From an uncultured Muribaculaceae bacterium (GTDB lineage Bacteria; Bacillota_I; Bacilli_A; RF39; UBA660), in assembly GCA_964425325.1 (NCBI GenBank), contig CAYRLX010000004.1:4577-68576 (forward strand): a stretch of DNA of 64,000 nucleotides, read 5' to 3'. Shown in pieces: positions 22,519 through 58,988 of this stretch. A program made the translations under genes and the position numbers. The notes beneath the pieces were generated by a model. It was not told where the DNA came from. It did not search any database and saw nothing but the letters and a program-made list of their open reading frames with translations. The stretch's first letter is position 1. Each line of letters opens with the position of its first letter.

Positions 22519-22529
22519 ATTCTTCACCT

Positions 22530-23642: not shown

Positions 23643-24258
23643 TATCACTATCCTTTTTTATAGACTCTCCTAGTAGCCCATCTGATTTTAATACCTTCTC
23701 AAAAACCTTCATTTCAGCATCTATATCCACCATATCAGTAGTATATAAATTATTAAGCTGCATATCAAAAGCACCTTTTATATCACCAAGTAATTTAATA
23801 ATTCGAGTTTTAAAATCACGAACCTCTCTGCTAGATAAATTCTCATTTTCTATCTCTTCATATTTTTTAAGTATCTTTAAAGTAATAGGCAAATAATAAT
23901 TCAGAAAATTAGTAGCCTGACTTATCTTCTCAGGGGTTTTAGAAAGCCTATTAGTAATCTTCTCAGAAATAGAAGCAATATCATTTACATAATCACGAAT
24001 AGTCTTATCAGTAATTAACTTAGCTATTCGTTTAAGTTCCCTAACATATTCACCACTTTTAATAAGCAAAGCTTTATATATGGCAAAATTACCTTTTCCA
24101 AGTTTATCTAAATCAGTCTCTTTAGTAGCAAGCGCTGAAGCTCCAAAAGCAAGCATTCCAACCCCAAGTGAAGGAAGAAGCCCAAAATTTAAAGCTAAAT
24201 AAGGAACTGCGAAAAATCCACTACCGATTATTCCAGATAAAATATATCTATTCTTCAT
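23629..24258 (-). CDS. xpaC: XpaC-like (5-bromo-4-chloroindolyl phosphate hydrolysis) protein
   Basis: About 200 aa: two N-terminal TM helices plus a helical domain. Conserved adjacency to telA. Confidence 0.55.
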   Translation of the reverse strand: MKNRYILSGIIGSGFFAVPYLALNFGLLPSLGVGMLAFGASALATKETDLDKLGKGNFAIYKALLIKSGEYVRELKRIAKLITDKTIRDYVNDIASISEKITNRLSKTPEKISQATNFLNYYLPITLKILKKYEEIENENLSSREVRDFKTRIIKLLGDIKGAFDMQLNNLYTTDMVDIDAEMKVFEKVLKSDGLLGESIKKDSDNDGH

Positions 24259-25853
24259 TAGTTATAACCCCTTACTTCTTTAAATGCTGATAACAAATTA
24301 CTTCTTCCATCAAAAACCTTACCATTAGATAAATCAGTAATCTCCTCTAGTTGATACCTACTAGCAGAGCCAAACATAATCGCATAAACCGGAATCTTGC
24401 TTTCTAGTTTTTTATAAGCTTTTTTATAATCACTAAAGTACCCACTATTACCTTCACCATCAGTCATCAAAATAACAGATAAATTATACTCATCAGGATT
24501 TTCCTTAGATAAAATATCAAAAGCTTTTATTGTAGGCATATATAAATTAGTGCTTCCACCTAGTTCTTGATCTTTTATTTTTTGAATTAAAGAAGAAGTT
24601 TCTTCACCATTATCAGTACTAAATTCATTTAATATAGTACTGTCAAATGCAATAACACTAATCTTATCTTTTTTAGAAAACTGAACCATATTTTTAGAAG
24701 CCTTAGAAGAATCTAATATAAAGTCCATCGCGCTAGTAAGCTCTTTATTACCATCTCCATACATACTACCAGAATAATCTAAGCAAAATACCGTATGAGT
24801 AGGTTTTCTAAACTCAGTTTGATATAAAACTAAAGCCTCTTTTATTATAGAAGAAGAAGGATACTTAACAGGAGATAAATAACTAGAAGTATCAATTCCC
24901 CAAGAATTATTAAATACCTTTTTAGAAGCCTTACTATTAACTCCACCATACCAAGTACGTCTTCCATAGCCCTCTAACTTCTTTTGAACATCTTTGCTCA
25001 AAACATATTTTTGAAAGCCAAGAAATACCTCTTCCTTATCATCATCCTTATTATTGACATAAGCAAGCGGAGCATCAGAAATAGTAACACCATCCACAGG
25101 ATAAATAATATAATATGGCTCTTTCCCAGATTTTTCTAATTTCTTATTTAAACTAATAAAAGAGGATTCATAAGAAATAGCCGCATCATAATCACCTTTA
25201 ATTAAAACATCTTCTAAAAACTCATCACTACCACTAGTTCTAGTAACACCATTTAGTAAACTAGTAATATCAGAAGTTAAATTCTCATTTTCTAAATGCT
25301 CATGAGTAAGCACTTCAGGATTACCAGATAAAGTTTGCAAAAATCCCAAATAAGCAGAAGCTCCAGTATTAGTCTGAGTAGCAGAAGTCATAACAAACTT
25401 TAAATCACCTTTTTTAATAGCTTCAAGTAAATCTTTCGTATAAATATCTCCACTTGTAAAGCCAAGTTTTTCAGCCACACTTTTTTTAATACCAAATACA
25501 ACAGGATTAATGAAAGTACTCTTTGAATCAATAACTTTATAAGAATCATCAAGCATATAAAGCCAAATAGAATTAGAAGCCCATATTGCATCATAATTCT
25601 CATTGTTATTAAGCTTATCCATTATCTCGATAGTACCAGCATAATCGATATCGACATTCATTTTTTCTTTAGAAAAATAATCTTTTATAATAGGCTCTAA
25701 ATCTTTATTTTCAGAGCTAACTAATAACTTAAAAGAATTACCAGTAAATACATCAACTACACTTCTTCCAGCACTCAAAATAATATTTATAAAAAATACA
25801 AAAGCAATAAATAAACATCCAAAAAATAATATAGTTTTTTTCTCATTACTCAT
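24258..25853 (-). CDS. membrane-anchored binding-domain plus von Willebrand factor A domain protein
   Basis: N-terminal TM segment, a solute-binding-like domain, and a C-terminal vWA domain with MIDAS DYSGSM...T...D(G)EGN. ATG at 25853 with RBS GGTGAT. Confidence 0.7.
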   Translation of the reverse strand: MSNEKKTILFFGCLFIAFVFFINIILSAGRSVVDVFTGNSFKLLVSSENKDLEPIIKDYFSKEKMNVDIDYAGTIEIMDKLNNNENYDAIWASNSIWLYMLDDSYKVIDSKSTFINPVVFGIKKSVAEKLGFTSGDIYTKDLLEAIKKGDLKFVMTSATQTNTGASAYLGFLQTLSGNPEVLTHEHLENENLTSDITSLLNGVTRTSGSDEFLEDVLIKGDYDAAISYESSFISLNKKLEKSGKEPYYIIYPVDGVTISDAPLAYVNNKDDDKEEVFLGFQKYVLSKDVQKKLEGYGRRTWYGGVNSKASKKVFNNSWGIDTSSYLSPVKYPSSSIIKEALVLYQTEFRKPTHTVFCLDYSGSMYGDGNKELTSAMDFILDSSKASKNMVQFSKKDKISVIAFDSTILNEFSTDNGEETSSLIQKIKDQELGGSTNLYMPTIKAFDILSKENPDEYNLSVILMTDGEGNSGYFSDYKKAYKKLESKIPVYAIMFGSASRYQLEEITDLSNGKVFDGRSNLLSAFKEVRGYN

Positions 25854-25888
25854 ATTCATCACCATTTAATAATATTATACTATAAAAT

Positions 25889-27927: not shown

Positions 27928-29112
27928 TTAAATAATACAATAAGAATTGCCCGTTTTAAATACACGACAGATAGTACTAACAGAACCATACACACTGACA
28001 CCACCTGAGGAATCGGCACTCGCACGATATAACCCGCCACTATAGCAAGTAGAAATACTAGCTGTAAACGTACATCCTATCCTAGTAGAAGAATTATAAG
28101 CTCCTAAATTATAAAATGCTTGATAATCTTTTATTATCTGAGTATTTTGAGCAAATGAGGCCCCGCTATCAGCTCCTTTCATACAATGTTCAGTATTATT
28201 ATATACAAAGCATACGTAAGAAGCAGTTACTACGTCTTCTACTATATCGTGCTTTAAATAATATGATTTATTCAAGGCACTTGCATCTTCTGTATAACTT
28301 CCTAAGCCTTTTTCTCTAGTTTGGCAGCTATATCCAGCTGGAGAATTTTTACCTTCGTATCCTGTTTGACATTCTGCTTCAGTACTGTATTCATCAACAT
28401 ATTCTCCTCCAGTTGATGGATTTGAAATTACCCATACTGTCCCAGTATCATTTATATTATCACCATTATGAACTCTATTGGTGTTATGTCTATATACTGT
28501 TCCAGTATAAGTTGTTACCATTCCATCTGTGCCGGTTCCTTGCTCTGCATTTATCTTTACATTTAGAGACTGCTCTTCTCCATCATATGGTCCAGTTACA
28601 TCAGTAGTATTTTGAAATCTAGCAACTACTCTCATTGTAGTCTCTCCGTCTACTGCAAGATTAGTACTTTCTGGCATATGCACAATAAACTCTATATTTT
28701 CTTTTTTTATTGTTGTATCTGTTGTTACATTATTATTTTCTACTTGTATACTTTTTATAGCTACTGGTACAGTAGATTTATTCTTTATTGTAAGAGTATA
28801 TTCTATTTGATCACCCGGCTGTTTAAATGTTGCTGTTAAAGAAGCATCTGGCTGATACTTAGTTTCACAAGTACTACCTGAGAAAGTTATACTTCCTGTT
28901 GGTGTAGATCCTCCAGTAATACCTGCTTTTGCTGTATAATCAGTAGTTTTCGTATTATCAAATCCTACGCACCATGAATTTGAAATATTGGCTGTTCCAT
29001 TTATAGTGAGTAATTGGCTAAATGCTGCATATCCTACTCCCATTATGACAAGTATCATGCATAGTCCAATTATTATATAATTTCTTTTATCTTGTTTTGT
29101 TCTTAAATTCAT
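27928..29112 (-). CDS. secreted or membrane-anchored protein with TasA-type N-terminus and Cys-rich C-terminal domain
   Basis: Signal anchor IIIGLCMILVIMGVGYAAFSQLLTINGTANISNSW, like the island proteins. The C-terminal 150 aa contain about 10 Cys. Confidence 0.6.
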   Translation of the reverse strand: MNLRTKQDKRNYIIIGLCMILVIMGVGYAAFSQLLTINGTANISNSWCVGFDNTKTTDYTAKAGITGGSTPTGSITFSGSTCETKYQPDASLTATFKQPGDQIEYTLTIKNKSTVPVAIKSIQVENNNVTTDTTIKKENIEFIVHMPESTNLAVDGETTMRVVARFQNTTDVTGPYDGEEQSLNVKINAEQGTGTDGMVTTYTGTVYRHNTNRVHNGDNINDTGTVWVISNPSTGGEYVDEYSTEAECQTGYEGKNSPAGYSCQTREKGLGSYTEDASALNKSYYLKHDIVEDVVTASYVCFVYNNTEHCMKGADSGASFAQNTQIIKDYQAFYNLGAYNSSTRIGCTFTASISTCYSGGLYRASADSSGGVSVYGSVSTICRVFKTGNSYCII

Positions 29113-29208: not shown

Positions 29209-29233
29209 GAGAATGATTATATATAGAGGTGAA
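29209..29233 (+). repeat. shared 5' leader motif, copy 1
   Basis: GAGAATGATTATATATAGAGGTGAA immediately before the ATG at 29237. Repeated at 32836-32865. Confidence 0.7.
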
Positions 29234-29236
29234 CAA

Positions 29237-30265
29237 ATGAATAATAATAATAAATTAAACAAAAAATTTAAAAATATAATAAATAATATCAAAAAAGAAA
29301 TAAATACAACACAAATAAAAATAGCAGTAGAAACAAATAAAAATATAATTAATTTATATTTTAAAATAGGTAAAATATTAAACGATAATTTTAAATATGG
29401 TAACAAATTTATAGATTTTATATCACAAGAATTAAAAAACGAATTTCCAAATACAAAAGGTTTCTCTGTTAGAAATTTAAAATATATGAAAAAATTTTAT
29501 TTAGAATATAAAGATAATAAAGTTGTGCAACGCACCGTTGCACAACTTCCATGGAGACATAATATTGTTTTAATAAGCAAACTTAAAGACAATAAAATAA
29601 GAAAAATATATGCTGAAGCAACTATAAAAAATGGGTGGAACAAAAATATGTTAACAATACAGATAGAAAATAATTATCATTTAAGAATTGGAAATAGTTC
29701 AAACAATTTTAAACTATCATTACCAAAAACAACTAGTAGTTTAGCAAATAATATAATTAAAGACCCATATATATTTGATTTTATATCATTAAAAACCAAT
29801 TACAAAGAAAAAGATTTAGAAAAAGCTATGCTTGAAAAAATAAAAGATGTTTTAATAGAATTAGGAAAAGGTTTTTCATTTGTTGGTAATCAATATAAAA
29901 TTAATATAAATAATAATGAATATTTTATAGATTTATTATTTTATCATTTAGATTTAAAGTGTTATATTGTAATCGAATTAAAAACAACAGAATTCAAGCC
30001 AGAATACATAGGACAATTAGGATTCTATATTACCTCTGTAAATGAAAAAATAAAAAAAGAAACAGATAATCAAACGATTGGAATACTACTTTGTAAAGAT
30101 AAGAATAGACTAACAGCAAAATGGGCATTAAAAAGTACAAATGTACCAATTGGTGTATCCACTTATGAACTTGGCAAATATTTACCAAAAAATATTATTG
30201 AAAAATTGCCAACCGAAGCAGATTTAAATATCAATATCAATACAAATAAAAAAATTAAAAAGTAG
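29237..30265 (+). CDS. PDDEXK nuclease-fold protein, YhcG/DUF1016 family
   Basis: C-terminal core FIDLLFYHLDLKCYIVIELK (D...ExK) plus the N-terminal helical DUF1016-like region. ATG at 29237 with RBS AGAGGTGA. Confidence 0.75.
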   Translation: MNNNNKLNKKFKNIINNIKKEINTTQIKIAVETNKNIINLYFKIGKILNDNFKYGNKFIDFISQELKNEFPNTKGFSVRNLKYMKKFYLEYKDNKVVQRTVAQLPWRHNIVLISKLKDNKIRKIYAEATIKNGWNKNMLTIQIENNYHLRIGNSSNNFKLSLPKTTSSLANNIIKDPYIFDFISLKTNYKEKDLEKAMLEKIKDVLIELGKGFSFVGNQYKININNNEYFIDLLFYHLDLKCYIVIELKTTEFKPEYIGQLGFYITSVNEKIKKETDNQTIGILLCKDKNRLTAKWALKSTNVPIGVSTYELGKYLPKNIIEKLPTEADLNININTNKKIKK

Positions 30266-34484: not shown

Positions 34485-35069
34485 TTATTGACTAGCAACT
34501 AATTTTACTTTTATTTCAATTTGCGTAACACCTGGATTACTATTTTTAAAATCATAAGCTTTCCTTCCCCAATAAGTATCCTCTTCATCATCGCCAGACT
34601 CATAAGGCCATACTACTTTAACTTTAAAATTAGAAGTCTGCCCAATTTGTACAACCGGATTATCTTGAGTAAAAGTAGTTTTAAAAGGATAGTTATTAGA
34701 AAGTATTTCCTCGAGTTCTAAAGTAGTATATTCATCCTTAGTAAAAGTTTCATCAAAAATTTTAACAGAAATAATTTCATAATTTATATTTGCTGCAACC
34801 TCACCAGAATTTTTAATCTCAACCTTCTCATTAAAATCAGGCATCCCGGGATATAAAGAATAAACATTAAAAACAACTTCGCTTTCTAAATCAGTTCCAT
34901 CCTTAGCAAAAGTAATTTTCCAAGATTTAACTCCAGCATTTATCGTATTAGAAACCTTATTACTATAAATAAACCAAGCAAAAGCATTACCAATTAAAGC
35001 TAATACAAGTAAAAATAAAGTTCTCCTTCTAACGCCATTTTTAAATTTCTTATACTTACTCTCCTTCAT
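34485..35069 (-). CDS. small secreted beta-rich protein, TasA/camelysin-like (SipW-type signal)
   Basis: Signal anchor LFLLVLALIGNAFAWFIYSN, then VKSWKITF as in paralogues 43034-43603 and 55740-56330. RBS GAGGAA. Confidence 0.6.
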   Translation of the reverse strand: MKESKYKKFKNGVRRRTLFLLVLALIGNAFAWFIYSNKVSNTINAGVKSWKITFAKDGTDLESEVVFNVYSLYPGMPDFNEKVEIKNSGEVAANINYEIISVKIFDETFTKDEYTTLELEEILSNNYPFKTTFTQDNPVVQIGQTSNFKVKVVWPYESGDDEEDTYWGRKAYDFKNSNPGVTQIEIKVKLVASQ

Positions 35070-35619
35070 CTAATTCCTCTTCTTTAGACTTTATAAAATC
35101 AATTATTTCTAAAAAAATAAGAAAAGCAATTGGAACAAAAATTAAGAAATAAAAACCAAAAGAATTATTTAAAATACCACTTAAAAAACTTAAAACAACA
35201 GTCTTATACTTGACAACACCATACACTTGATCTTGACTAACTATAGGATCTTCAAGCGGATTATTAATACCCTTAGTAGTATACTCATATACCCCATTTT
35301 TATTTTCAATATTAATAACCCTGTGGGTAATTATTTTATCTTTATAACTATCAGCTTTACCCATATATACTAAGTCATCACCAATTTTAATCTTATCAAA
35401 ATCCTTACTTCCAACTAAAATAACATCCATTATCTTATACTCAGGAAGCATACTGCCTGATGCTATAGTAAAAAGCCTGTAATTACCCAAAGCAATTTTA
35501 TTATTAAAAACTCTTTGAACTAAGATTAAAATAACAACCATAATAGCAATTATCCAAACTACTATTCTAATTAAACTAACAATAAATTTTAAAACCTTAT
35601 TATCCATTATTTTTTTCAT
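35056..35619 (-). CDS. sipW: signal peptidase I, SipW/archaeal-ER type (catalytic)
   Basis: Catalytic Ser box IASGSMLPEY, His box IITHRVI, TKGINNPLED, and a C-terminal TM helix. Confidence 0.8.
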   Translation of the reverse strand: MKKIMDNKVLKFIVSLIRIVVWIIAIMVVILILVQRVFNNKIALGNYRLFTIASGSMLPEYKIMDVILVGSKDFDKIKIGDDLVYMGKADSYKDKIITHRVINIENKNGVYEYTTKGINNPLEDPIVSQDQVYGVVKYKTVVLSFLSGILNNSFGFYFLIFVPIAFLIFLEIIDFIKSKEEELDEGE

Positions 35620-36721
35620 TTAAACCCACCTTCAAATCATGCTCTTTAGCCATATAAAGTTCAATAGCCTCTTTATACTTCTTCTCAATCACACTAGTGT
35701 CTACAACTTTTTGATATTTAACCTTTATATACTCATCACCAATTAATTTCATAACATCCTCTAAAGATAAATTATCCTTAATACTTAATAGCTGATTTAC
35801 AGTATTAGAAGCAACCTGATTTTTCAAATCATCCTCAAGTTCCTCACTCTTTTCACTAATAGAAGATTTCATAATCAAATAATCAAGTAAAAATGAATCA
35901 TTCATCATCTTCTGCAAAACCCCATTATCCTCATAACCATTATTTTTCTTCTCACGGGTGCTACTCGCTTCCATATGACTTTGCATGTAATTCCACAAAT
36001 CTAAAGCATACTGAAAATTGACATTTTTTAAAATCAAATTAGTTTTTTTAATAGGAGACACAACAGGAGCAACATGAAGACGAGCAATATCTTTGTATAC
36101 ACTAGTGCTGCATAGATCTGCAATTTTTTGTTCAAGTTTCTCTATTCTATCAAATATAGAATTCTCTTTTTTGGAACTTTCCTTCAAATCACTCTTAAGC
36201 TGCAAAGCAATCTCAATATTTTCCTTGCCTATTTTGGATTTACCTCTATACTCCAAAGAAAGCTGTTCATTTTTCGAAGTATCAGATAAATTTTCAGTCT
36301 TCTTTCTTTCAATATACATCTTCATATTATTTATCAAAGTAAATATAAACCTATTCTCATAAGTATTAAAACTCTCTTCCTTGTTTATATTTAAAATTTT
36401 AGAAGGCTTAACCTCTTCAGTTTTAGGATCATACTTTTGAATCAAATTAGTATTACGAGATAAATGTTTAATACTATCGACAGTAATACGTCTAGCAAGC
36501 TCAATTTTAACAAGTTCTTCTTCATTGACAATAAACCTATTAGGATTTCTTAAAATATTATCGATATACCTTACAGTCTCCTCCATCTTAACAAGCCACT
36601 GATCATCATAGACAGTATTGTCCTTCTTTTGATTAACATTTAAAGTAGACCTTACAGAATCATTAAATTCCTTCTTTTTAATATCATCTAAATTATTATA
36701 AAGATTTAAAACATTATTCAC
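35600..36721 (-). CDS. McrC-N-terminal-like (DUF2357-like) partner protein without a nuclease domain
   Basis: Immediately downstream of the McrB-like gene. The segment SFNTYENRFIFTLINNM resembles the McrC/DUF2357 N-terminal region. No PD-(D/E)xK motif found. GTG start with RBS AGGTGA. Confidence 0.4.
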   Translation of the reverse strand: MNNVLNLYNNLDDIKKKEFNDSVRSTLNVNQKKDNTVYDDQWLVKMEETVRYIDNILRNPNRFIVNEEELVKIELARRITVDSIKHLSRNTNLIQKYDPKTEEVKPSKILNINKEESFNTYENRFIFTLINNMKMYIERKKTENLSDTSKNEQLSLEYRGKSKIGKENIEIALQLKSDLKESSKKENSIFDRIEKLEQKIADLCSTSVYKDIARLHVAPVVSPIKKTNLILKNVNFQYALDLWNYMQSHMEASSTREKKNNGYEDNGVLQKMMNDSFLLDYLIMKSSISEKSEELEDDLKNQVASNTVNQLLSIKDNLSLEDVMKLIGDEYIKVKYQKVVDTSVIEKKYKEAIELYMAKEHDLKVGLNEKNNG

Positions 36722-36731
36722 GATTTATCAC

Positions 36732-38252
36732 CTACGTTAACTTCTTAAGACGAAGCAAATACTCCTCGCATTCTTTCATTTCGCCTTTTCCAAAAGTAGT
36801 ATCTAAAAACTCAATAAAACCATCTATTTCATCTCTAATATAAGATATATTAAGTTGTTCAAACTTTCTTAAAATCTTTCGTGCAATAAAATAATCAACT
36901 CCCGCAACCTCAGTTCCACCGCAAGCAACATATACAGGTACAAACTTACGCATATGAGCAACAATACGGTTACCAAAAGCTATCCTAAAATGTTTAATAA
37001 CATAATTATCCATCTCTTCTATTTTATTTAAAGTATCCTCACTAACCTGATTCTCATTAATAGCCGTATTAAATAAATTACGTAAATAAGAATAATTAAT
37101 GTCTTGAGCAGGAGTATCAATAGGTTCAAAAACTTCACCCTTATCATTAATGTCTATTGGCATCGCACGGTCATAAACCTTATCAGTAACCATAAATGTA
37201 GAATCATCGTTATTGATAGTACCTATATACCAAACATTAGGGCTAATCTTAAGTTTACCATCAGAAAGACGCTCTGGATCACTACTCCAACCACTAGATA
37301 CAAGTTCGACAAGCCACTCATCTTCATTAGGCATCTCCAAAATAGAAAGCATCTCCGCAAAATAATACTCAACCCTGGCAATATTCATCTCATCCAAAAT
37401 TACCGTGAAAACATCATCAGTATAACCAGCTTCATAAATAGTCTTAAGAACATCAGTTTCATTAAACTTCTTAGTAAATTCGTTAAAATAACCAAAAAGC
37501 TCAGTACGATCACGCCAAGAAGGCTGAACAGAAGCTACGCAAGAGTCATGTTTTAAAAACTTACCCCAAGCATAAGCAAGTGAAGTCTTACCAGTACCAG
37601 AAATACCCTGCAAGATAATAAGCTTAGTAGAAGCTAAAGCAGAAATAAAGATTCTAATCATCTCACTTTTATAATAAAGCTTTAACTTACTAGCCGCAAA
37701 ATTTCTAAATAGCTCGACAAGCTCCTCCAAAGTAAAATTGTTGTTATAATTCTTAATAGTATAACTAGCAAACTCCTCGTCTATATTAGCAAGTTTAGCA
37801 AACCTTCTTCCGTCATTATTATCATCTTTCTTCTCTTCGCTTACCTCTTCAGTATCACTCTCTCCAGGCTTAAGACCCAAATGAGATACTTTCATAGCTA
37901 AAATATCTTCTTTCTCTTTAACCAAAGTAGATACCTCGTCATTTAAAGTAGCAACCTCATTTAAAAGTTCTTCCTGTTCAACTAAAGTTTTCCTAAATCT
38001 AATATACTTATTTACTAAAAATATAACGAGAAATAAAAGACCACCCACAACTAAAAGCATTAAAATAACAGCTAAAACTACAAAAATCCATTCAGGCCCA
38101 TTAAAATCTTCCTTATAAAAATTAAGTATCTTTAAATAGCTTCTAAAATCAAAAATTTGAAAAAAAGCACTAATAAATCCTTTTATAATCATATAAAAGC
38201 CACCAAAGAACTGACCTAAAAACTCATAGATAAATCTTAAAAAAGTATCCAT
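36732..38252 (-). CDS. membrane-anchored McrB-like AAA+ (AAA_5) NTPase
   Basis: Two N-terminal TM helices and a coiled coil. Walker A GISGTGKTS, then VILDEMNIARVEYYFAEMLSILE and WYIGTINNDDST as in McrB-family GTPases. Confidence 0.7.
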   Translation of the reverse strand: MDTFLRFIYEFLGQFFGGFYMIIKGFISAFFQIFDFRSYLKILNFYKEDFNGPEWIFVVLAVILMLLVVGGLLFLVIFLVNKYIRFRKTLVEQEELLNEVATLNDEVSTLVKEKEDILAMKVSHLGLKPGESDTEEVSEEKKDDNNDGRRFAKLANIDEEFASYTIKNYNNNFTLEELVELFRNFAASKLKLYYKSEMIRIFISALASTKLIILQGISGTGKTSLAYAWGKFLKHDSCVASVQPSWRDRTELFGYFNEFTKKFNETDVLKTIYEAGYTDDVFTVILDEMNIARVEYYFAEMLSILEMPNEDEWLVELVSSGWSSDPERLSDGKLKISPNVWYIGTINNDDSTFMVTDKVYDRAMPIDINDKGEVFEPIDTPAQDINYSYLRNLFNTAINENQVSEDTLNKIEEMDNYVIKHFRIAFGNRIVAHMRKFVPVYVACGGTEVAGVDYFIARKILRKFEQLNISYIRDEIDGFIEFLDTTFGKGEMKECEEYLLRLKKLT

Positions 38253-39234: not shown

Positions 39235-40152
39235 CTAATAATCATAAGTAACATTAATTACCGAAGAATTACTATAATCTATACTTTTATCATTTTTATA
39301 AAATTTAATAACATCACTAATACTAGAATCCATATCAAAAGTAAATTTTTTAACATAATTAAACCCATCTATCACTTTAGTTTCGATATTATAAGCCTTT
39401 AAATAATCAGTAGCAGTATTATCTATCTTAATAATATCAGGATCAAAACTTACAGTAATAACAGCAGAAGCACATTTCTTTTTATCCTCATCACTTAAAG
39501 ATAGATAAGTATCCACACTAATAGAATCATGAGAAGAATAACTTCCAAAAGCTTCTTTTACAAAATAAGAATCTAAAGTATTAGTTACTTTCAAATTTAA
39601 ATAATCACTTCCACTACTGTCAGATATCTCATGACCAAGTCCATATTTACCAACCACAAACGTAAAAGACGCAGAAAGTTCTTTAACATATGGTTTTAAA
39701 GACTTTGCAATAATCTTAACAGTAGTACTATCTCCATCATTAAATATAGCATTAGGTGTCATAGTAAACACAAAACTGTCAGTATTACTAGCTGATGAAA
39801 TAACCCCATCATCTTTACTAGTAGAACATATTAAATTACTAGGACACTCATAACTTATTTCATATTCTATATCAGAAGAACTTTTAAGCTTATCGTTTTT
39901 AAAACTATTTAAATTCACAACAATATCATATGGATCAACACCATTCCAATAGTCAAGAGAATATCTAGCATTATCCCTTTTTAATTTATCACTTTCAAAA
40001 TAAAAACTTTGACTCATAAAATATAAATCTAGAATTTTATTATATACGTACCTTCCAAGACTGACAGAAATAGTAATTAAAAATAAACTAATACAAAAGA
40101 TAACTATATAAATATAAACTCTAGGTATTCTTTTAAATTTTTTTAATTTCAT
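39235..40152 (-). CDS. membrane-anchored extracellular protein
   Basis: N-terminal anchor VYIYIVIFCISLFLITISVSLGRYVY, then a beta-rich S/T/D/N-rich ectodomain. ATGA overlap with the upstream gene. Confidence 0.6.
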   Translation of the reverse strand: MKLKKFKRIPRVYIYIVIFCISLFLITISVSLGRYVYNKILDLYFMSQSFYFESDKLKRDNARYSLDYWNGVDPYDIVVNLNSFKNDKLKSSSDIEYEISYECPSNLICSTSKDDGVISSASNTDSFVFTMTPNAIFNDGDSTTVKIIAKSLKPYVKELSASFTFVVGKYGLGHEISDSSGSDYLNLKVTNTLDSYFVKEAFGSYSSHDSISVDTYLSLSDEDKKKCASAVITVSFDPDIIKIDNTATDYLKAYNIETKVIDGFNYVKKFTFDMDSSISDVIKFYKNDKSIDYSNSSVINVTYDY

Positions 40153-40616
40153 GCTTTTTTATAATTTCTAAGCAAAGTAATAAAATAAAAAGTAATAGGA
40201 AATATAACAGATAATAAGTAACCAATCTTACTAGTAAAAATATTATATAAATAGCCTATAAAAGGAATAACTAAAGCATCATCTACTTTTCCAATAATAT
40301 AATCTATAGATACATATTCGTTGTCTCTAATAACAAAAGTATCATTATTAAGTACTTTCATAACCCTTTCACTATTTACAAAATTCTTACTATTTTTAGT
40401 ATCGTAAAATAAAATTTCGTCACCTATTTTAACATCGCCCTTTTTTAAAATAATTAAACTGCCCTTCTTATAATTTAATAAATCTTCTTTTAATCCAATT
40501 ATTGTCTTACCAAATAAAACACTATTAGAAAACCTATTAAAAGTAAACAATAAAACAGTATTTATAATTACAAAAAAGACAAAGATACCAATTAAAATAT
40601 ACTTTCCTACTCTCAA
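40149..40616 (-). CDS. SipW-like pseudo-peptidase (catalytic Ser and His absent)
   Basis: Same N-TM, beta-core, C-TM layout and GD...GDEILFYD / IGKV blocks as SipW. No SxSMxP box; THRV is replaced by ERVMKV. TTG start. Confidence 0.55.
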   Translation of the reverse strand: MRVGKYILIGIFVFFVIINTVLLFTFNRFSNSVLFGKTIIGLKEDLLNYKKGSLIILKKGDVKIGDEILFYDTKNSKNFVNSERVMKVLNNDTFVIRDNEYVSIDYIIGKVDDALVIPFIGYLYNIFTSKIGYLLSVIFPITFYFITLLRNYKKA

Positions 40617-40709
40617 CTATCATCACCATATCAATTGTATCATAAATTGTCAAACTTTAAAAGAAAAAGCATACTTAAAAACCATATATCAAAACTACTA
40701 CTCAATAAT

Positions 40710-40739
40710 AAAAAAAACTACACTAAATTGTGTAGTTTT
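40710..40739 (-). terminator. intrinsic terminator after the 358-aa subunit gene
   Basis: Minus strand AAAACTACAC-AATTTA-GTGTAGTTTT followed by eight T. Confidence 0.6.
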
Positions 40740-40751
40740 AATATACCCTAA

Positions 40752-41828
40752 TTATGGTTCAGGAGTTGGCGTACTAGATGAAGTATCAACAGGTTTTATA
40801 CTAAATTGTAAGTTAAAAGAAATTTGTCCACCAGAAGCATTATTCTCACAGTCAACGTCTTGTCCTTCAATCCACATATAAATTCTAATTTTAGTAATAC
40901 CAGCAGCTAAACCATCAGTTTCAGTTAAAGTTTGACTGTCAGTATAACCTTCTTTAGTTTTAATATCAGGATTAACATCAGTAAAATAAGTTTCATTTAA
41001 AGTTTGAGTAGCTTGCTCACGTTTAATTTTAGCAGACGCTGGAACAACAGCCTTAACACCAGAATAAGGAACCCAAGCATTATTACTACCAACATTTAAT
41101 GTAGTAATACCATAAGGGCTTATCGCATTGGCAACACCGTCTCCAGTATGAACATCATAGTTTGGCTCCCACATTTTAACAGTTGAACTAGTTCCTTCAT
41201 TTAAAGCTTGTACATTGGCAATTGAATCAGAAGTAGTAGTATGACCTAAAGTAACAAAAGCTATTCTAGCAGCATTTTTAATACCAGTGTCATCATTTCT
41301 AAATACAACTGTAGAATTTGGAGTCATATATAAAGTTTCATCTTGTTCATTCTTTAAGAAAATATCAAAAGCAACAAACTTACCTTGTGACTCAGCCCCA
41401 GAACTATTAGTCTCTTCAGATTTAGAAGCACTTAATATAAAGTTACCAGTAGTCTCATCTGCAAGAACTTTACCTAAGAACATCTCCATTTTACCATTCG
41501 CATCAACAACACCAGCAGTTGAAACAGGCTCTAAAGTTTCAGGTAATTGGTTAACTGCAGCAGAATAATTACCAATCGCACCAGTAATATCAGTATTAGT
41601 TATTACTGATTTCCAGTTAGTCGCATCAGTAGATATCTGAATACCACTAGATGTTGATACATTAACATCGATTGGACTTATAGTAACCTTTTCGTTAGCC
41701 GTAAACCATGCATAAGATGCAGTTCCTAAAAAGATACCAGTTGCAATCAATAAAAATAAAATTAAAAGTAATCTTCTCTCCTTCTGTTTTTGTTTCTCTT
41801 TCTTACTCATTTTTTTTGACTTAGCCAT
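40752..41828 (-). CDS. secreted TasA-like protein, candidate major filament subunit
   Basis: ATG at 41828 with a perfect RBS AGGAGG. Signal anchor ending GTASYAWFTAN. Paralogue of 53093-54070 (shared NQLP, WEPNYDVHT, IYMWIEGQDVDCENNAS). Has its own promoter and terminator. Confidence 0.65.
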   Translation of the reverse strand: MAKSKKMSKKEKQKQKERRLLLILFLLIATGIFLGTASYAWFTANEKVTISPIDVNVSTSSGIQISTDATNWKSVITNTDITGAIGNYSAAVNQLPETLEPVSTAGVVDANGKMEMFLGKVLADETTGNFILSASKSEETNSSGAESQGKFVAFDIFLKNEQDETLYMTPNSTVVFRNDDTGIKNAARIAFVTLGHTTTSDSIANVQALNEGTSSTVKMWEPNYDVHTGDGVANAISPYGITTLNVGSNNAWVPYSGVKAVVPASAKIKREQATQTLNETYFTDVNPDIKTKEGYTDSQTLTETDGLAAGITKIRIYMWIEGQDVDCENNASGGQISFNLQFSIKPVDTSSSTPTPEP

Positions 41829-41853
41829 AAAAAACCTCCTACTATTTAATTTA

Positions 41854-41882
41854 ATTCTAACACACTTTATACCAAACGGCAA
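41854..41882 (-). promoter_or_regulatory. internal promoter for the 358-aa subunit gene
   Basis: Minus strand TTGCCG (41877-41882), 17 nt, TGtTAGAAT (-10 at 41854-41859). Confidence 0.45.
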
Positions 41883-41899
41883 TACATTTTTTTAACTAT

Positions 41900-42454
41900 T
41901 TACACTTGCTTTGCATCGACGCTAATTTCAATAGTATCAATTAAGTCCTGATACATCTCGTCATTATACATTTGAGGAAAATTAACCACTAAAGTATACT
42001 TATCCGTTCTAGAAACATCATGAGTAAAACTACCAGCTAAAGATTCATACTTAAAAAAATACATACCATTACTATCTTGAATAATTTCCCTATTACCAAT
42101 TATATTCTCGTTACCATCATCCTTATATAAACTATAAGTAACAGGAATATTAGTAGTAGTTATAACCTCAAAAGTATAATCTAAATTAACCTCACTTACC
42201 TTGTCATCTTTAAAATTAGATACCTCGATATTATAAGTATAATCCTGACCATCAGGAGTAATTTCTCCAATTTTAATAGACTCAGTCTGTTTTTTAGGAT
42301 CAATTACATAAAAAGCAATCTTACTGCCAATAACTCCATTTGAATCACTATGAAATAATGAATAAGTAACTTTTATAAATATTAAACTAATAAATATACC
42401 TAAAACAACCAAAACAATACGAAAAGATAATTTAAACCTATACTTATCGAACAT
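41900..42454 (-). CDS. small secreted beta-rich protein (SipW-type signal)
   Basis: ATG at 42454 (MFDKYRF) with RBS AAGGATGG. Anchor IVLVVLGIFISLIFIKVTYSLFHSDSN. Overlaps the sipW stop by 11 nt. Confidence 0.6.
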   Translation of the reverse strand: MFDKYRFKLSFRIVLVVLGIFISLIFIKVTYSLFHSDSNGVIGSKIAFYVIDPKKQTESIKIGEITPDGQDYTYNIEVSNFKDDKVSEVNLDYTFEVITTTNIPVTYSLYKDDGNENIIGNREIIQDSNGMYFFKYESLAGSFTHDVSRTDKYTLVVNFPQMYNDEMYQDLIDTIEISVDAKQV

Positions 42455-43019
42455 TAGACCCATCCTTCTTAAGTTTAATACCAGAGTAATAAATACCAAA
42501 GTCATCATGCTTAGTAAGTATAGCTTTACCAGTATAAGAAAAAGCTAGTGAAAACATAAATAAAGTAAAACATATCATAATAATAATTTTAGGAGTAGTA
42601 ATTACCTTAAACCAAACACCCATATTAGGAAATATTTTAACTACCTTACCAACAACCTGAGAAGAAGTAATCTGTTTATCCCTCTCATTATTCGCATCTC
42701 CCTTAGTAATAAAGCCACTTCCAGTTTTAGAAATAACCCTGTGAGTAACTAAAACATTACCATCTTCAAAAGTAATAATATCATCTACATCTATTTTTTT
42801 ACTAATCTTAACTAAAATCAAATCATTAGTAGTGATAGTCGGAGCCATACTGTTACTTCCAATTTGAAAAACAGTATAAGAAAAAAAGCTGGCATAATTT
42901 TTAGATAAAATATTTAAAGAGATAAACAAATATAAACAAATTCCAAGTATTAAAAACAGAAAACAAGACAGTATCTTGCTGACTATTTTAAGAATATTTA
43001 AAACGATCTCTTTATTCAT
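42444..43019 (-). CDS. sipW: signal peptidase I, SipW/archaeal-ER type (catalytic)
   Basis: Ser box IGSNSMAPT, His box VTHRVIS, TKGDANNERD, and a C-terminal TM helix. RBS AAGGTGGTGA. Confidence 0.8.
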   Translation of the reverse strand: MNKEIVLNILKIVSKILSCFLFLILGICLYLFISLNILSKNYASFFSYTVFQIGSNSMAPTITTNDLILVKISKKIDVDDIITFEDGNVLVTHRVISKTGSGFITKGDANNERDKQITSSQVVGKVVKIFPNMGVWFKVITTPKIIIMICFTLFMFSLAFSYTGKAILTKHDDFGIYYSGIKLKKDGSNVR

Positions 43020-43033
43020 CTCATCACCACCTT

Positions 43034-43603
43034 TTATTCAGTATACTGAGTAAATTTAATATTTACAGGAATTTCAAAAGTAGAAGAAGACTGACCAAGC
43101 ATAGAATCACTTTCATTATTCGCATCATCATTTTCCCAGCTAAAAGAAACTTTAATAGTATCCTTCTTGCCAGCCTCTATCTCACTTAAACTAAAAACCC
43201 TACTGTAAACTCCAGAATTAACATCCAAAGTAGTACCATCCACACCTTCAATACTATCAAGTTTAATCTGACTATATTCATTACCACTTAAATCAATAGA
43301 TAAATCATATTTAAAAGAAACCTCAGTATCACTAGGATCAATTACAAGTAAAAACATACCAGTAACTCCAGGAGCAAATCTATCTTCATTTACATTATCA
43401 GAATTAACATAAGTTATATTATCCACATAAAAAGTATTTTCAGTATCATTTAAATTATCATTGTTTACCTTTATATTCCACTTAGCTATCGAAGAACTCG
43501 CATCTTCATCATACTTCGATTCAAACACACCAAAACTAGTAGAAATACTATGAATTGTCAAACAAAGGAAGACAAAACATAAAACAATTAATATTTTTTT
43601 CAT
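43034..43603 (-). CDS. small secreted beta-rich protein, TasA/camelysin-like
   Basis: Signal ILIVLCFVFLCLTIHSISTSFGVFES, then IAKWNIKVNN. Paralogue of 55740-56330 (shared EVSF.Y...I, SF.WE/FKWLD). Confidence 0.6.
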   Translation of the reverse strand: MKKILIVLCFVFLCLTIHSISTSFGVFESKYDEDASSSIAKWNIKVNNDNLNDTENTFYVDNITYVNSDNVNEDRFAPGVTGMFLLVIDPSDTEVSFKYDLSIDLSGNEYSQIKLDSIEGVDGTTLDVNSGVYSRVFSLSEIEAGKKDTIKVSFSWENDDANNESDSMLGQSSSTFEIPVNIKFTQYTE

Positions 43604-44483: not shown

Positions 44484-45983
44484 TTACATAGCATTATTTT
44501 TTTCTAAAGCACCTCTTATTTTTTTAGCCTCTTTAAGCGCATCTATAGAAATGCCAAGTCTCTTTAAATTATAATTCATAATTATCTTATTTAAATCATT
44601 TATAATACCATCTATACTATCGAGTTTAAGTAAAGACTCATCTATAGTTACATTATGCATTTTATAATTAGTAATAATTATATCAGAAATATTATCGTCA
44701 CCAGTAACCGTAATATTATTAATAAGTGTATTCTTAGGATTCATCGTAAAATCATAAAGCTCATCTATAGTTTTATCAAGCTCACTATAACTATTATCCT
44801 CATAAAAACTAGCTATAACTACATAATACTGACAAACAAGTAAAAAAGCTTTAAAAATAGTAGAATTTTCTTTAATATGTTCTTTTACAATAACCTTAAA
44901 AATATTAGAGTCTATTTCATCATAGACACCCTTAATTTCAGAAATAACACTATTTATCTGAGGGTCCATCTTACCAACTTTAGTCTTCTCTAAACTTATA
45001 GAAAACCCTTTACCAAGCTTAAATAACTTCTTTTCTAACTCCTCTATCTTTTTAATAGACTTAGATAAATAATCTTTCTGGATATCCTCATTATATAGTT
45101 CCTTTATCTTATCTATAATAGAGCTGTATTTTAAATATTCCTTATATTCCTTTAAACAGTCAAAAAGTTCAAAGACAATATCGATATTATCATCACTAAA
45201 ATACTTTGACCTAATAGAACTAATAGCCTCATCAGTATATTCGTCGATATCAAACTTTTGATTATAAAAATCTAAAATCAAATTATTCTTACTTATAAAA
45301 TCATCATCTTTTCTCCTTAGATAATTATAATCGTTAACTATGCTCTCTTCACCATTCACAAACCTATTTAAAGCCTTATTAGAAAAAGAGGTAAAATAAG
45401 CATCCATTTTCTTCTTATTCTTAATATATAAATGCCTAAAATTAAGTTCTATTTGAAGCATAATATTAGGACATCTCCAATAAATATCATCGAATACCTC
45501 TTTTATTCTAGAAACACTAAGATTACCATCAAAGAACATCTCCATATATTCATACACAAAATTAGTATAATTAAAATCCTTATGAGATAAAACTATAGAA
45601 GAAGCCTTAAACGTATTAATCATCATTAAAATCTTACGATTATTATTAATCAAATTATCGTCTTCAAAATGAGAAAGCTGATAAATTAACTTATCCAAAT
45701 CTAACTTTTCATAAGAAGTGCTTAAATTATTCGTATATTTTAAAATACTTTTTAAAGTGGAAATAGCTTTCTTATTACTAACTATCTCTTCATAAGACAT
45801 ATTCTCAAACGAAGATATTCTTCTTTTGCATTCCAAAACTATTCCCTCTAATCTCTTTTGATAATTATCGATTTCTAAATCAATTTCCTCTATTAATTTT
45901 CTCTTGTTTTTTTCGTTATTAATAGGAAGGCCATTTAAAACTTCTTCACTTAAACTAATATCTTTCTCTAACTTATCCAGCAT
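44484..45983 (-). CDS. hypothetical cytoplasmic helical protein
   Basis: 499 aa with no TM or signal sequence and coiled-coil-rich. No recognisable motif. Confidence 0.6.
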   Translation of the reverse strand: MLDKLEKDISLSEEVLNGLPINNEKNKRKLIEEIDLEIDNYQKRLEGIVLECKRRISSFENMSYEEIVSNKKAISTLKSILKYTNNLSTSYEKLDLDKLIYQLSHFEDDNLINNNRKILMMINTFKASSIVLSHKDFNYTNFVYEYMEMFFDGNLSVSRIKEVFDDIYWRCPNIMLQIELNFRHLYIKNKKKMDAYFTSFSNKALNRFVNGEESIVNDYNYLRRKDDDFISKNNLILDFYNQKFDIDEYTDEAISSIRSKYFSDDNIDIVFELFDCLKEYKEYLKYSSIIDKIKELYNEDIQKDYLSKSIKKIEELEKKLFKLGKGFSISLEKTKVGKMDPQINSVISEIKGVYDEIDSNIFKVIVKEHIKENSTIFKAFLLVCQYYVVIASFYEDNSYSELDKTIDELYDFTMNPKNTLINNITVTGDDNISDIIITNYKMHNVTIDESLLKLDSIDGIINDLNKIIMNYNLKRLGISIDALKEAKKIRGALEKNNAM

Positions 45984-46100: not shown

Positions 46101-49100
46101 CTATTTAATAATTACATATTGAATAACATCACCGATAAAAGTATCACCATCATAAAGACTAAATACAAATTTATAAGTACCACTAACAAGCAAAGATTTT
46201 AAATAAAGCGCCTTATTCATACCATCCACTGGATCATCTATAAACATATATTCACCCTCACCAGTAGAAGTCAAATTATTAGTAACATAATCAGTCAAAT
46301 TAACCTTTTCATAATCGTAAGAATAAACATCATCATATAGTCTTCTGTATAAAGAAACCCTAATATTAGGACTTGCAAAACTAGAATTATATCCTAAAGT
46401 AAAGTTTAAAATATTATTATCATTTTTGGTATAACCAGTAGTTTTATCAATTATCATCTCTTCATCAGTAAGTTTAACCTTAAGGCCATAAGAACTATTT
46501 ATCATTGTAAAAGGAAGTTCTATAGAATCTTGCGCTAAAGATCCATAATAAATTCCATCAGGAGAAGTAAACGACTCTATCTTAAGTACATAACTACCAC
46601 TAGCTAAATTCAAATTAGTAGTGTCTATTTTTATCCTCTTAAAAATATTCGCAACCTTATCAGTTAAAGCAATTCTAACACTACCATCCATACGCGGATA
46701 ATAATAAGTATCATCAACCTTATAAGCAAGACCAAGTAAACTACTGTTGTTAAGCTGATTTCCACTAGAGTCATAAATAGTAATCTTTACACCAGGCTTT
46801 TTATCGAAATGACTAGTGTCAACTACAGGAAGACTGCCGACAATAGGCTGAGTAAAATTACCAGTTAAATCTACATTAGCAATATCACCTTTATAAATCG
46901 TAGAGTCGGAAAACTCTCCTTCGATATCCATTTTCGCATCACTATTATCATATAAATTATAAGTTAAAGCCGATCTTTGAATACCAAGCAAGTTAATCAA
47001 AGTATTCTCTCTGTCCCTCAGCTCTACAAATAAAGTATTTCCAAGTTTATTACCCTCTATTTCAGTATCTTCAAAATTGACTATAAAGATAAACTCCTCA
47101 TTCACCGTTTTAGAATCATTAAAGTAATATTTAGAAGCATTTTTAGATTCATCAAAAGTATTATTTAAACTAGTAGATCCCATCTTAATAAAATTAGAAA
47201 ACTTATAAGCACACTCACCATAAGTATTAAAATCACGGCAAGCCTCATTATTACCATTATCATCTACTACATAATAATATTTCTGATTATCTATTAAATC
47301 AAGCATAGTTATCTTAGTCTTAGCTGGAAACATATAATTAGAAACTAAAGCATGATTATAAGTACTCTTATAATAAGAATTTTCAGAATTCATAAATAAA
47401 GAATAATAGGCACTTAAAGTAGATTTAGTATTAATATTTGTTGGTAAAGAAGCAAACATCTCATGCTTCTCCCCGCTCGTCATAGACCCTTCATACTTAT
47501 CTTCACTAAATAAGGCAGAACTTAAAGTGACATTAATATTCACACGTCCTATCCTATCGTTAAGTTCATCGATAGGAGTAACCGTTTGAAGAGAAATAAC
47601 AACAGTTCCAATCTCACGAGATATAGAAATATTTTTAGAGTGATAAAGATAAAATAATAAACTAGGAGCAGATTCAGAGTTCTCAGAAGTATAACTTCTA
47701 GTTCCATAAATAGGATTACTACTGTTAGTTAAAAACTGAGTAGAACCAGAATTTACAAAACCAGTATTAGACGGTTCAAAAGCAAGACCCATTTTAGTAT
47801 CAGCTGTTCCATCAAAATTAATTCTAGGTATATCACTAGATTTGACAAGCTCAAAACCATCCTCTATATCATCGTAATTAAAACCTAAAATTTGAAAAGT
47901 AGTATTAGCCTCATTGTTAAAAATCAAAGGAAGCTCTGTAGTACCTAAAGTAGAATACTTAGAAGCCGCTAAACTAATATCATAAGTTTTAACCTGCTCA
48001 CCAATTGACCATCTATAATAAGGGCCATCCTCAGGAGAAGGTATAACGTACTTAACTTTAATCTTTCCCTCATTTTCCTCATCAGGATAATTACTGTAAA
48101 AACCATCCTTAGAGATATTATGATTACTCTTATGAGCCCCCATAACATAACTACCTAAAGTAAAAGCATATAAATCAGTTGGAGCATCACTACCATTAGT
48201 ATATTTATTATCATATAATGCAGTTATTATCTTGCCGTTTCTATCTAACTTATACATTCCAAAGAAAGTCATACCACTTACATTTCCATATGCAGTTGCA
48301 TATTCATTAGTCGCAATATTTAAATTCTTTCCATTAAACATATAAACCCTATTGTTTACATTTCTAGTATAACTTCCAGAATCAGTAATATTTACAGTTG
48401 CCTTAGTGACATTATCACCATCTATTTTAGCACTGTAAAACTCCTCGAGTAAATTCGCACCAGTATCTAAAAATAAAGTACTATCGTTAGCTAAAACAAG
48501 TTTTTTAATACGGCTTAAAGAAAATTCCACAGTAGAAAATTCATTAGTTCTATCAGTAGCTCCCTCAAGTTTAATCGAAGAATTTTTTATAGTAAGTTCG
48601 TCAGTTCTTTGAATAGATACATTTTCCTTATAATCATTAAACGTACCATAATTACTAATATTAATCTTACTATAACCAGAAGTAGAAGAAGCGTTACCAC
48701 TACCAAAGATAGAACCTAAAATATCAAAATTATTGTATCCATCTCCATCTATATTAACATCTATTCCTTTAGTAACACCGATAAAACTAAAGTCATACTT
48801 AGGTGAACCACTCGCATTAGCTTCACCACCACCAAATACAGTCCCATATATCTTAATATCAGATTTTTGATCTTGATTATACCCGATATTCAAAATAGAA
48901 TTACCATATAAAACAGCAGTATTAGCTCCTCCGTAAACATTACCATGAATAACACCACCAGCAATATTTACATGACTAATAGAAGAATTAGTAGATTCAG
49001 TTCCAGTATTAGCTGCATTTCCACCACCAAAGACATGAGAAGTTATATCAGAAGTTCCAAGGATTTTAATATTAGTGTTTCCATGGACAACCGCAGTATT

Positions 49101-54758: not shown

Positions 54759-54784
54759 AATCACACATCCCTATTCTTATATAA

Positions 54785-58975: not shown

Positions 58976-58988
58976 TGTTATAGTAGCA
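58973..58988. other. attR of the island
   Basis: TGATGTTA|TAGTAGCA, the exact reverse complement of attL. Confidence 0.75.

Follow-up and report, generated by a model that had tools for sequence, protein, structure and literature searches.

McrBC is the textbook GTP-dependent restriction machine. In its canonical form, known from Escherichia coli (PDB 6hz4 and 6ut6), the complex is soluble and combines McrB, which has an N-terminal DNA-binding domain, with McrC, which carries a PD-(D/E)xK nuclease. Here, we describe a McrB-like NTPase of 506 amino acids (aa) and its McrC-like partner of 373 aa, encoded side by side in a 64,000-nucleotide (nt) stretch of contig CAYRLX010000004.1 (the window) from an uncultured Muribaculaceae bacterium (assembly GCA_964425325.1; GTDB lineage Bacteria; Bacillota_I; Bacilli_A; RF39; UBA660). 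The two systems share a homologous AAA+ core with a Walker A motif, a DExN Walker B motif, an asparagine/aspartate signature and an arginine cluster, and in both a partner with a McrC-type N-terminal region (DUF2357) is encoded immediately downstream. However, the signature reads NxxD in McrBC and NxD in the window, and the DNA-binding domain of McrB is replaced by a transmembrane (TM) segment, a coiled coil and an acidic linker. In addition, no nuclease was found in the window partner, and the pair is membrane-anchored through its NTPase and chromosomally encoded in an operon for exported proteins.

This architecture already has a name. Bell, Sahakyan, Makarova, Wolf and Koonin (eLife 2024; PMC11090510) delineated a large clade in the NxD branch of the McrB GTPases and called it CoCoPALM. 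Its GTPase is fused to an FtsB-like domain with TM and coiled-coil helices and is associated with proteins of the signal peptidase family, and coiled coils usually occur on the McrB and McrC homologs alike (PMC11090510). The published account is a single paragraph with neither gene lists nor experiments, in which the analysis is deferred to a forthcoming publication (PMC11090510). Our literature search found no follow-up paper and no other paper that uses the term, and the supplementary files of Bell et al. that were searched yielded no CoCoPALM details.

The locus in the window is a CoCoPALM member, and nothing contradicts that membership. Its signature GTINNDDST, N-x-D followed by D, is the exact variant described, and McrB is its best PDB match. 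The NTPase has a TM segment followed by a heptad-like helix, its gene is adjoined by that of a DUF2357 McrC homolog, and the surrounding cluster contains two catalytic and two degenerate SipW-like genes. Two points of the description are less distinct here. The N-terminal module gives just a sub-threshold match to the NCBIfam family FtsL_Actino (aa 56-130), with 18.9 bits where the cut-off is 55 (E = 0.001), and the coiled coil expected on the McrC side is short or doubtful in the window partner, whereas partners from distant loci have clear tails. Because the architecture had already been named, the locus is not the discovery of a new kind of system. What is added here is the type of the peptidase (SipW, archaeal/ER), the presence of catalytic together with degenerate paralogs, the extent of the cluster (about 16 genes, one for a giant exported protein and one for an EAL-like protein among them), the finding that no nuclease is linked to it, and a conservation profile that marks the NTPase as a core component.

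The CoCoNuT (CnuB/CnuC) and PDC-M26 systems resemble the locus in belonging to the NxD McrB clade, in having McrC homologs that are often devoid of an active nuclease, and in their recurrent coiled coils. CoCoNuT GTPases, however, are soluble proteins of 700-870 aa with long coiled coils and a GLSGTGKS-type Walker A, whereas the window NTPase is TM-anchored, has a coil of about 30-40 aa and reads GISGTGKT.

Two readings of the pair had been put forward in the preliminary description of this DNA, namely a repurposed machine acting on exported subunits and a membrane-associated defence module carried as island cargo. Our analysis favours the former. We consider it probable, though well short of certain, that the pair uses GTP to power or gate the way in which exported proteins are processed, released from the membrane and assembled into a surface structure.

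The McrB-like NTPase and its DUF2357 partner

Both open reading frames (ORFs) occupy the positions and the strand that the preliminary description had assigned to them (Table 1). An exhaustive search of 1.84 billion cluster representatives retrieved 8222 relatives of the NTPase, and the partner has 3042 homologs in the database. With families of this size, the two are real conserved genes and not chance ORFs.

The NTPase had been described with two N-terminal TM helices and a coiled coil of about 40 aa, and both features proved somewhat smaller. A single strong TM helix is predicted at aa ~57-82, where the Kyte-Doolittle mean over 19 residues is 3.33. The other proposed segment, at aa ~11-34, reaches just 1.46. 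As two clear TM segments are seen in many of the more distant homologs, the window protein could plausibly, though not certainly, form a TM hairpin. The stretch KYIRFRK directly after the strong TM helix suggests, by the positive-inside rule, that the C-terminal domain would face the cytoplasm. The helix-prone region that follows does span about 40 aa, but its heptad-like part, as judged by a crude score, is limited to about 28 aa (92-119). The acidic linker is present as described (aa ~126-149).

The motifs GISGTGKTS, SVQPSWRDRTELFGYF, VILDEMNIARVEYYFAEMLSILE and WYIGTINNDDST, on which the assignment to McrB-type AAA_5 proteins had been based, are all in the translation. E. coli McrB is the top PDB match of the NTPase, both as a single sequence (E = 0.003) and with a profile of 20 family members (E = 2.9e-5). 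The alignment spans Walker A (GISGTGKT versus GPPGVGKT), Walker B (LDEMN versus IDEIN) and the signature (GTINNDDST versus GLMNTADRS). At about 20-25% identity over the core, the likeness to McrB is real but remote. Pfam AAA_5 was undetected at E <= 0.1, and the "AAA_5" label therefore depends on the McrB match and not on Pfam. Walker A, DExN, N347, D349 and R362 are invariant in the family alignment of the closest NTPase class, and R362 aligns with the RRR arginine cluster of McrB. Judged by these residues, the NTPase looks catalytically competent.

The motif GT[AI]NxD[DE]ST is common to nearly all full-length proteins within the 150 best representatives. Three architectures are found among the relatives: proteins of about 500 aa with 1-2 TM segments, as in the window, soluble proteins of 700-870 aa, and proteins with 4-6 TM segments. 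The combination of TM segment and coiled coil is kept in about 35 full-length representatives, though its sequence is not. The proteins with 4-6 TM segments (560-680 aa, with a GLSGTGKS Walker A; for example P0281, P0283, P0287, P0293 and P0294, found outside the window) form a class separate from the proteins with 1-2 TM segments and from the soluble, CoCoNuT-like ones.

The partner gene starts with GTG past the ribosome-binding site AGGTGA, as had been read before. The distance between the two is 7 nt, and the gene is separated from the NTPase gene by 10 nt. The resemblance of its N-terminal region to McrC/DUF2357 is well supported by Pfam (DUF2357, McrC N-terminal; 51.3 bits against a curated cut-off of 23.3, E = 1.2e-13). 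The second half of that description, a helical C-terminus with no nuclease, also stood up to scrutiny. Scans of Pfam, NCBIfam and PADLOC gave no nuclease family, DUF2357 being the sole match, and the protein had no sequence match in the PDB either alone or as a 28-sequence profile. The AF2 model (pLDDT 68.7) is extended, with long beta hairpins and helices, and the C-terminal third (residues 268-358) is all helical. Foldseek found no PDB match to this model at E <= 0.001; the best, to TolC-like helices, had E 4e-3 and a TM-score of about 0.1. No alpha/beta nuclease core is present in the secondary structure of the model, although at this moderate confidence a cryptic fold is not disproved. Finally, the family alignment shows no invariant D/E..K (acidic/lysine) pattern in the C-terminal half.

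The partner is most conserved in block 1 (aa 42-141) and block 2 (aa 216-247); the majority fraction is 0.90 in either block, compared with 0.44-0.66 in the regions outside. Block 1 is also where the DUF2357 match lies and where AF2 models two segments at low confidence (62-97 and 102-116). That it is unplaced in the AF2 monomer is as expected for an element that folds against the NTPase ring, and block 1 may be an element that contacts or inserts into the ring. In block 2, a basic residue in PI(K/M)(K/R)TN is kept at all distances, and the motif reads PPIMRTN or PPILHTN in the long partners of distant loci.

Those long partners reach 500-821 aa. A nuclease on the added length was considered and rejected, since the extra sequence is a charged coiled-coil tail of 300-450 aa. 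Tails of this length with charged repeats of the KEKERLAKEKA type, corresponding to a coiled coil or a single alpha-helix, are found at four Clostridia-labelled loci (L078:11569-13743, L080:5313-7778, L082:11578-13830 and L084:11613-13646). At the same four loci, a SipW-like gene lies directly before the ATPase gene. In the window partner, heptad-like sequence is confined to a short stretch (173-206), which partly overlaps a predicted beta hairpin.

A conserved cluster around the pair

Relatives of the NTPase were sought in one genome per GTDB species and are encoded in at least 587 species-representative genomes. The best 80 are gut or rumen metagenome-assembled genomes (MAGs) labelled Bacilli, Tenericutes, Mollicutes, Erysipelotrichaceae and, in some cases, Clostridia; one of them is a closed chromosome of 1.55 Mb. 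The cluster proteins of the window were matched to all ORFs of 85 loci, and all ORFs of at least 100 aa within 10 kb on either side were subjected to unbiased clustering in 82 non-redundant loci. The resulting counts are limited mainly by contig ends.

Linkage of the pair to signal peptidases and exported proteins is nearly universal. Besides the NTPase itself (82 of 82 loci), the DUF2357 partner is present in 78 loci, adjoining the ATPase gene, with the rest cut by contig ends, and SipW-like genes are present in 76 (166 genes, about two per locus). For the other families, listed under the same names in Table 1, the counts are 67 for e194, 64 for e189, 60 each for the 319-aa protein and e305, 46 each for e376/g325 and e202, 41 for g238, 37 for the giant protein and 20 for g499. 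Co-occurrence with the putative fibre genes in other genomes, proposed earlier as a check, is thus found for SipW-like genes in 76 of 82 loci and for exported families in 46-67.

At the heart of the cluster is a unit of seven minus-strand genes, in the order pseudo-SipW, e305, 319-aa protein, NTPase, DUF2357 partner, SipW and e194, with overlaps of 4-20 nt and gaps of 10-11 nt. This agrees with the earlier placement of the pair between degenerate SipW-like and exported-protein genes on one side and a catalytic sipW on the other. Loci with homologs at about 50-80% identity have an identical seven-gene core and differing flanks. The catalytic peptidase of the unit (187 aa) retains the SGSM serine and the THRV histidine. 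Its gene overlaps the partner gene by 20 nt and, among those of the 82 loci that extend far enough downstream, follows it in most; directly after it comes a member of the e194 family, in 67 loci. In the degenerate 155-aa protein, GKTI and SERV replace SxSM and THRV, with loss of both serine and histidine. When the four peptidase paralogs of the window were aligned, two were found to keep both catalytic residues (serine of SxSM, histidine of THRV), which the other two have lost.

Upstream of the seven-gene unit lie e376, a candidate major subunit, and a second module containing another catalytic and another degenerate SipW-like protein together with the exported proteins e202 and e189 (Table 1). 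Still more distal are genes for which no Pfam or NCBIfam family was found (g499, the giant protein, g325 and g238). They recur near the pair in 20-46 loci, with their position relative to the core rearranged. Altogether the conserved cluster extends over about 16 genes, an extent that is newly described here.

A known system with a comparable gene arrangement is the Bacillus subtilis tapA-sipW-tasA biofilm fibre operon, in which a SipW-type peptidase is likewise encoded among exported substrates with a SipW signal (aromatic-A-x-F after the TM segment). In the window, e376 scores 13.5 bits against TIGR04088 (cognate_SipW), under the cut-off of 19, and the same model matches 9 of the 26 members of the e376/g325 family (best E 2.5e-5). 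Aromatic-x-x-F motifs resembling the SipW signal were also noticed by eye in other exported proteins. The Bacillus system, however, has no dedicated NTPase, McrC-like protein or degenerate peptidase paralogs. Furthermore, the e376/g325 family gave neither a Pfam Peptidase_M73 match nor a PDB profile match, and the exported proteins of the cluster have no detectable sequence similarity to TasA or camelysin.

The NTPase is the most conserved protein of the cluster. Its median identity is 79/70/60% in three groups of increasing distance, compared with 51/43/35% for the partner, 47/40/41% for SipW and 27-45% for the exported proteins.

These data bear directly on the second of the earlier readings, in which the pair would be a membrane-associated defence module carried as island cargo. 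In an anti-phage or conflict module of this kind, the surface proteins would act as sensors, or killing would be exerted through the membrane. The ATPase core does match the PADLOC candidate PDC-M26A (8.7e-35), its closest soluble relatives are the CoCoNuT-type predicted defence systems (PMC11090510), and TelA/VWA-type genes, a YhcG nuclease gene and a serine recombinase gene are found elsewhere in the window. Yet the PADLOC match is limited to aa 176-313 of the NTPase (positions 300-437 in a profile of 724), and none of the PADLOC models matches the partner. CoCoNuTs are reported as always associated with HEPN or other nucleases (PMC11090510), whereas clustering of ORFs across the 82 loci revealed no conserved family beyond those of the cluster itself, and thus no linked effector such as a nuclease or toxin. 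A large cluster kept in at least 80 species-level genomes, with its ATPase under strong purifying selection, is unlike the patchy and fast-evolving islands typical of defence. No NTPase copy of at least 80% coverage was found on catalogued plasmids or phages, where the matches involve the core of other NxD-clade proteins and do not exceed 40% identity. The flanks are also of a housekeeping kind, with LigA and PcrA bordering the whole cluster in the window and ClpP and enolase elsewhere. The idea of a defence module was therefore not upheld, and we regard it as very unlikely.

Possible functions of the pair

How could a restriction-type NTPase serve exported proteins? We propose that the pair is a nuclease-free McrBC derivative recruited from DNA restriction to the cell envelope. 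The N-terminal TM segment or segments and a short coiled-coil stalk would tether the 506-aa protein to the membrane on its cytoplasmic side, with the AAA+ domain assembling into a ring that hydrolyses NTP, probably GTP by homology with McrB. The 373-aa protein would take the role of McrC, binding to or inserting into the ring via its two conserved blocks and stimulating hydrolysis. Its helical tail would stand in place of the McrC nuclease, and would correspond to the long coiled coil of distant relatives. The pair is probably co-transcribed and translationally coupled with the catalytic SipW, the degenerate SipW-like protein, the exported proteins and the EAL-like protein. Hydrolysis may then drive or gate the processing, release and assembly of the exported proteins, in a manner analogous to the assembly ATPase of type IV filaments.

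The comparison with type IV filament machinery is one of analogy only. A hexameric NTPase on the cytoplasmic side of the membrane, a peptidase dedicated to N-terminally anchored subunits and a possible EAL regulator all have counterparts there (PilB, FimX/PilZ). However, the secretion ATPase PilB is not homologous to the McrB AAA+ domain, and neither a PilC-like platform protein nor class III signal peptides are present. For the degenerate peptidases, SipA/LepA of Streptococcus pyogenes is an inactive signal-peptidase-like protein that acts as a pilus assembly factor. Again by analogy only, the catalytically dead SipW homologs of the cluster resemble it as candidate assembly factors.

The same inactive peptidases could be viewed differently. 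If the NTPase were a ring of the FtsH or p97 kind, it could clear the membrane of stalled precursors, of signal-anchors left uncleaved or of the degenerate SipW-like proteins themselves, a form of quality control that serves the exported proteins but builds no structure. A membrane-tethered AAA+ ring on a short stalk does resemble the topology of FtsH-type proteins, and the cluster contains many uncleaved-looking signal-anchors in addition to two inactive peptidase paralogs. Nevertheless, the pair has neither a fused protease domain nor a protease as its specific companion, and no substrate-recognition elements are in evidence. McrC, moreover, occupies the pore of McrB-type rings, an arrangement ill-suited to substrate threading. 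This makes membrane protein quality control improbable as the main function.

The protein encoded directly upstream of the NTPase raises another possibility. It is a cytoplasmic protein of 319 aa for which AF2 gave a confident model (pLDDT 91.3), and its top PDB matches in Foldseek, about 30 in number, are all EAL domains. The first among them is FimX (E 4.8e-4, TM-score <= 0.48). FimX is a degenerate EAL receptor that binds c-di-GMP and controls the assembly of type IV pili. Of 27 homologs of the 319-aa protein, only one touches Pfam EAL, and the invariant columns of the family do not show the catalytic residues of a canonical EAL domain. Going by its modelled structure, the protein may have a degenerate EAL-like fold and, possibly, a role in sensing a nucleotide second messenger.

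In view of this neighbour, the pair could be a regulatory switch and not a motor: a slow GTPase timer or checkpoint that, perhaps in concert with the EAL-like protein as a sensor, gives licence for cleavage by SipW or for polymerisation and performs no mechanical work. McrB is a slow GTPase that McrC stimulates, and the truncated NxD signature was predicted to influence how fast hydrolysis proceeds (PMC11090510). The short anchor and stalk also offer little obvious lever for the transmission of force. On the other hand, AAA+ rings of the McrB family are mechanochemical in every case characterised, the likeness to EAL is weak, and in roughly one locus out of four the EAL-like gene went undetected. 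The very high conservation of the ATPase fits a motor or a switch alike. On balance, a pure switch seems rather unlikely, although it has more in its favour than quality control or defence.

Several points weigh against a GTP-driven assembly machine. The model TasA/SipW system needs no dedicated NTPase, which leaves the requirement for one here unexplained. The filament is hypothetical and the exported proteins have no sequence similarity to TasA, camelysin or solved structures, so that terms such as "fibre" or "pilus" are an assumption. The partner model is of moderate confidence (pLDDT 68.7) and the fold search did not retrieve McrC. The loci come from MAGs with inconsistent taxonomic labels, and we found no published experiments on any CoCoPALM member. 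Finally, GTP specificity is uncharacterised in the NxD clade (PMC11090510).

A broader version of the assembly machine is more tentative, and we would put its chances below even. According to it, a McrBC-derived GTPase ring and its nuclease-free activator would power a previously unrecognised class of Gram-positive surface filaments that is SipW-dependent, independent of both sortases and type IV pili, common among uncultured gut Bacilli with small genomes and in some Clostridia, and regulated through a degenerate EAL nucleotide sensor. It would be the first restriction-enzyme motor exapted for membrane protein assembly. A nuclease-free McrBC derivative tethered to the membrane and fixed in an exported-protein operon of hundreds of gut species would show that the motor can be exapted from conflicts over DNA to the biogenesis of the cell surface. 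The bacteria concerned, abundant in the guts of humans and animals, are essentially uncultured, and their surface structures bear on the interaction with the host. CoCoPALM was flagged in 2024 and then left unexplored; the gene list, the conserved blocks and the candidate regulator reported here now make the class testable.

Feature coordinates and other genes of the window

Coordinates are collected in Table 1. Among the regulatory features, promoter-like sites in the region number 90 against a shuffled expectation of 80 +/- 9, not above chance, and the boundaries of transcription units are therefore tentative. A terminator-like hairpin followed by a promoter-like site after e376 is the layout typical of a highly expressed major-subunit gene ahead of its assembly operon.

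Table 1. Features of the NTPase locus and of other parts of the window (positions in the window; aa, position within the protein).
Feature	aa	Window position	Strand	Basis or remarks
e194, 194-aa exported protein, N-terminal signal-anchor (…NAFAWF…), last of seven-gene unit		34485..35069	-	TM 17-35
Catalytic SipW-type (archaeal/ER-type) signal peptidase I, 187 aa		35056..35619	-	TIGR02228 4.7e-22, above cut-off
McrC-like partner, 373 aa, DUF2357 core, no nuclease domain found		35600..36721	-	Pfam, AF2, Foldseek
Partner conserved block 2, HVAPVxSPIKKTNLILKNxNFQ	216-247	35981..36076	-	
Partner conserved block 1, proposed NTPase-ring contact/insertion element	42-141	36299..36598	-	
Membrane-anchored McrB-like NTPase, 506 aa, NxD clade, CoCoPALM "McrB" component		36732..38252	-	ORF, PDB match
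AAA+ core		37158..37685	-	McrB alignments, family alignment
Walker A GISGTGKT	216-223	in 37158..37685	-	
Walker B DEMN	287-290	in 37158..37685	-	
Signature NND-D, NxD variant	347-350	in 37158..37685	-	
R362	362	in 37158..37685	-	
Acidic linker	~125-149	37806..37880	-	Sequence
Short coiled-coil-like helix	~85-124	37881..38000	-	Heptad-like window 92-119
Strong TM helix	~57-82	38007..38084	-	Kyte-Doolittle
Weak first hydrophobic segment, possible TM1 or amphipathic helix	~11-34	38151..38222	-	Kyte-Doolittle
Degenerate EAL-like cytoplasmic protein (putative), 319 aa		38264..39223	-	AF2, Foldseek; 11-nt gap to ATPase gene
e305, 305-aa exported or membrane-anchored protein		39235..40152	-	TM 14-32
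Degenerate SipW-like protein, 155 aa, first of seven-gene unit		40149..40616	-	Weak TIGR02228 3.7e-4
Promoter-like site TTGACA-17-TG-TATGGT before seven-gene unit		40625..40653	-	Suggestive only
Terminator-like hairpin after e376		40714..40739	-	
e376, exported, SipW-type signal (…TASYAWFTANE…), candidate major subunit, g325 paralog		40752..41882	-	TIGR04088
Second module, e202		41900..42508	-	
Second module, sip191, catalytic SipW paralog, 191 aa		42444..43019	-	TIGR02228 4.1e-21; SNSM, THRV retained
Second module, e189		43034..43603	-	
Second module, pSip278, degenerate SipW-like, 278 aa		43613..44449	-	Weak match, catalytic residues lost
Distal, g499, cytoplasmic helical 499-aa protein		44484..45983	-	
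Distal, giant 2325-aa exported protein, N-terminal signal-anchor		46101..53078	-	
Distal, g325, SipW-signal protein		53093..54070	-	
Distal, g238, membrane protein		54048..54764	-	
TelA (toxic anion resistance), unassigned 372-aa ORF, XpaC-like (Halogen_Hydrol), fused solute-binding/VWA protein		21373..25865	-	
e394, 394-aa exported protein		27928..29112	-	TasA-like signal (…GVGYAAFSQ…)
YhcG/DUF1016 PD-(D/E)xK nuclease gene		29213..30265	+	
Large serine recombinase		57398..58975	+	Resolvase, Recombinase, Zn-ribbon

The YhcG/DUF1016 gene lies 5 kb from the pair and on the opposite strand, between the exported protein with the TasA signal (e394) and pcrA. Its product was considered as the missing nuclease acting in trans and rejected, since just 1 of the 82 loci shows the two linked. 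The neighbouring e394 has a canonical TasA-like signal and weak matches to camelysin/Peptidase_M73 (0.0083) and to the archaeal pilin UpsA (0.007). It lies outside the conserved cluster, and was detected next to the pair in only three loci (L003-L005), whose contexts are near-identical.

Further away, the run of genes from telA to the fused solute-binding/VWA protein constitutes a TelA/TerY-style stress or conflict module that is positionally unrelated to the cluster. On the other side, the large serine recombinase gene is found about 2.6 kb past the cluster end. The GC skew, otherwise uniformly negative, turns positive here (58000..60000), and this may be the edge of an integrated element.

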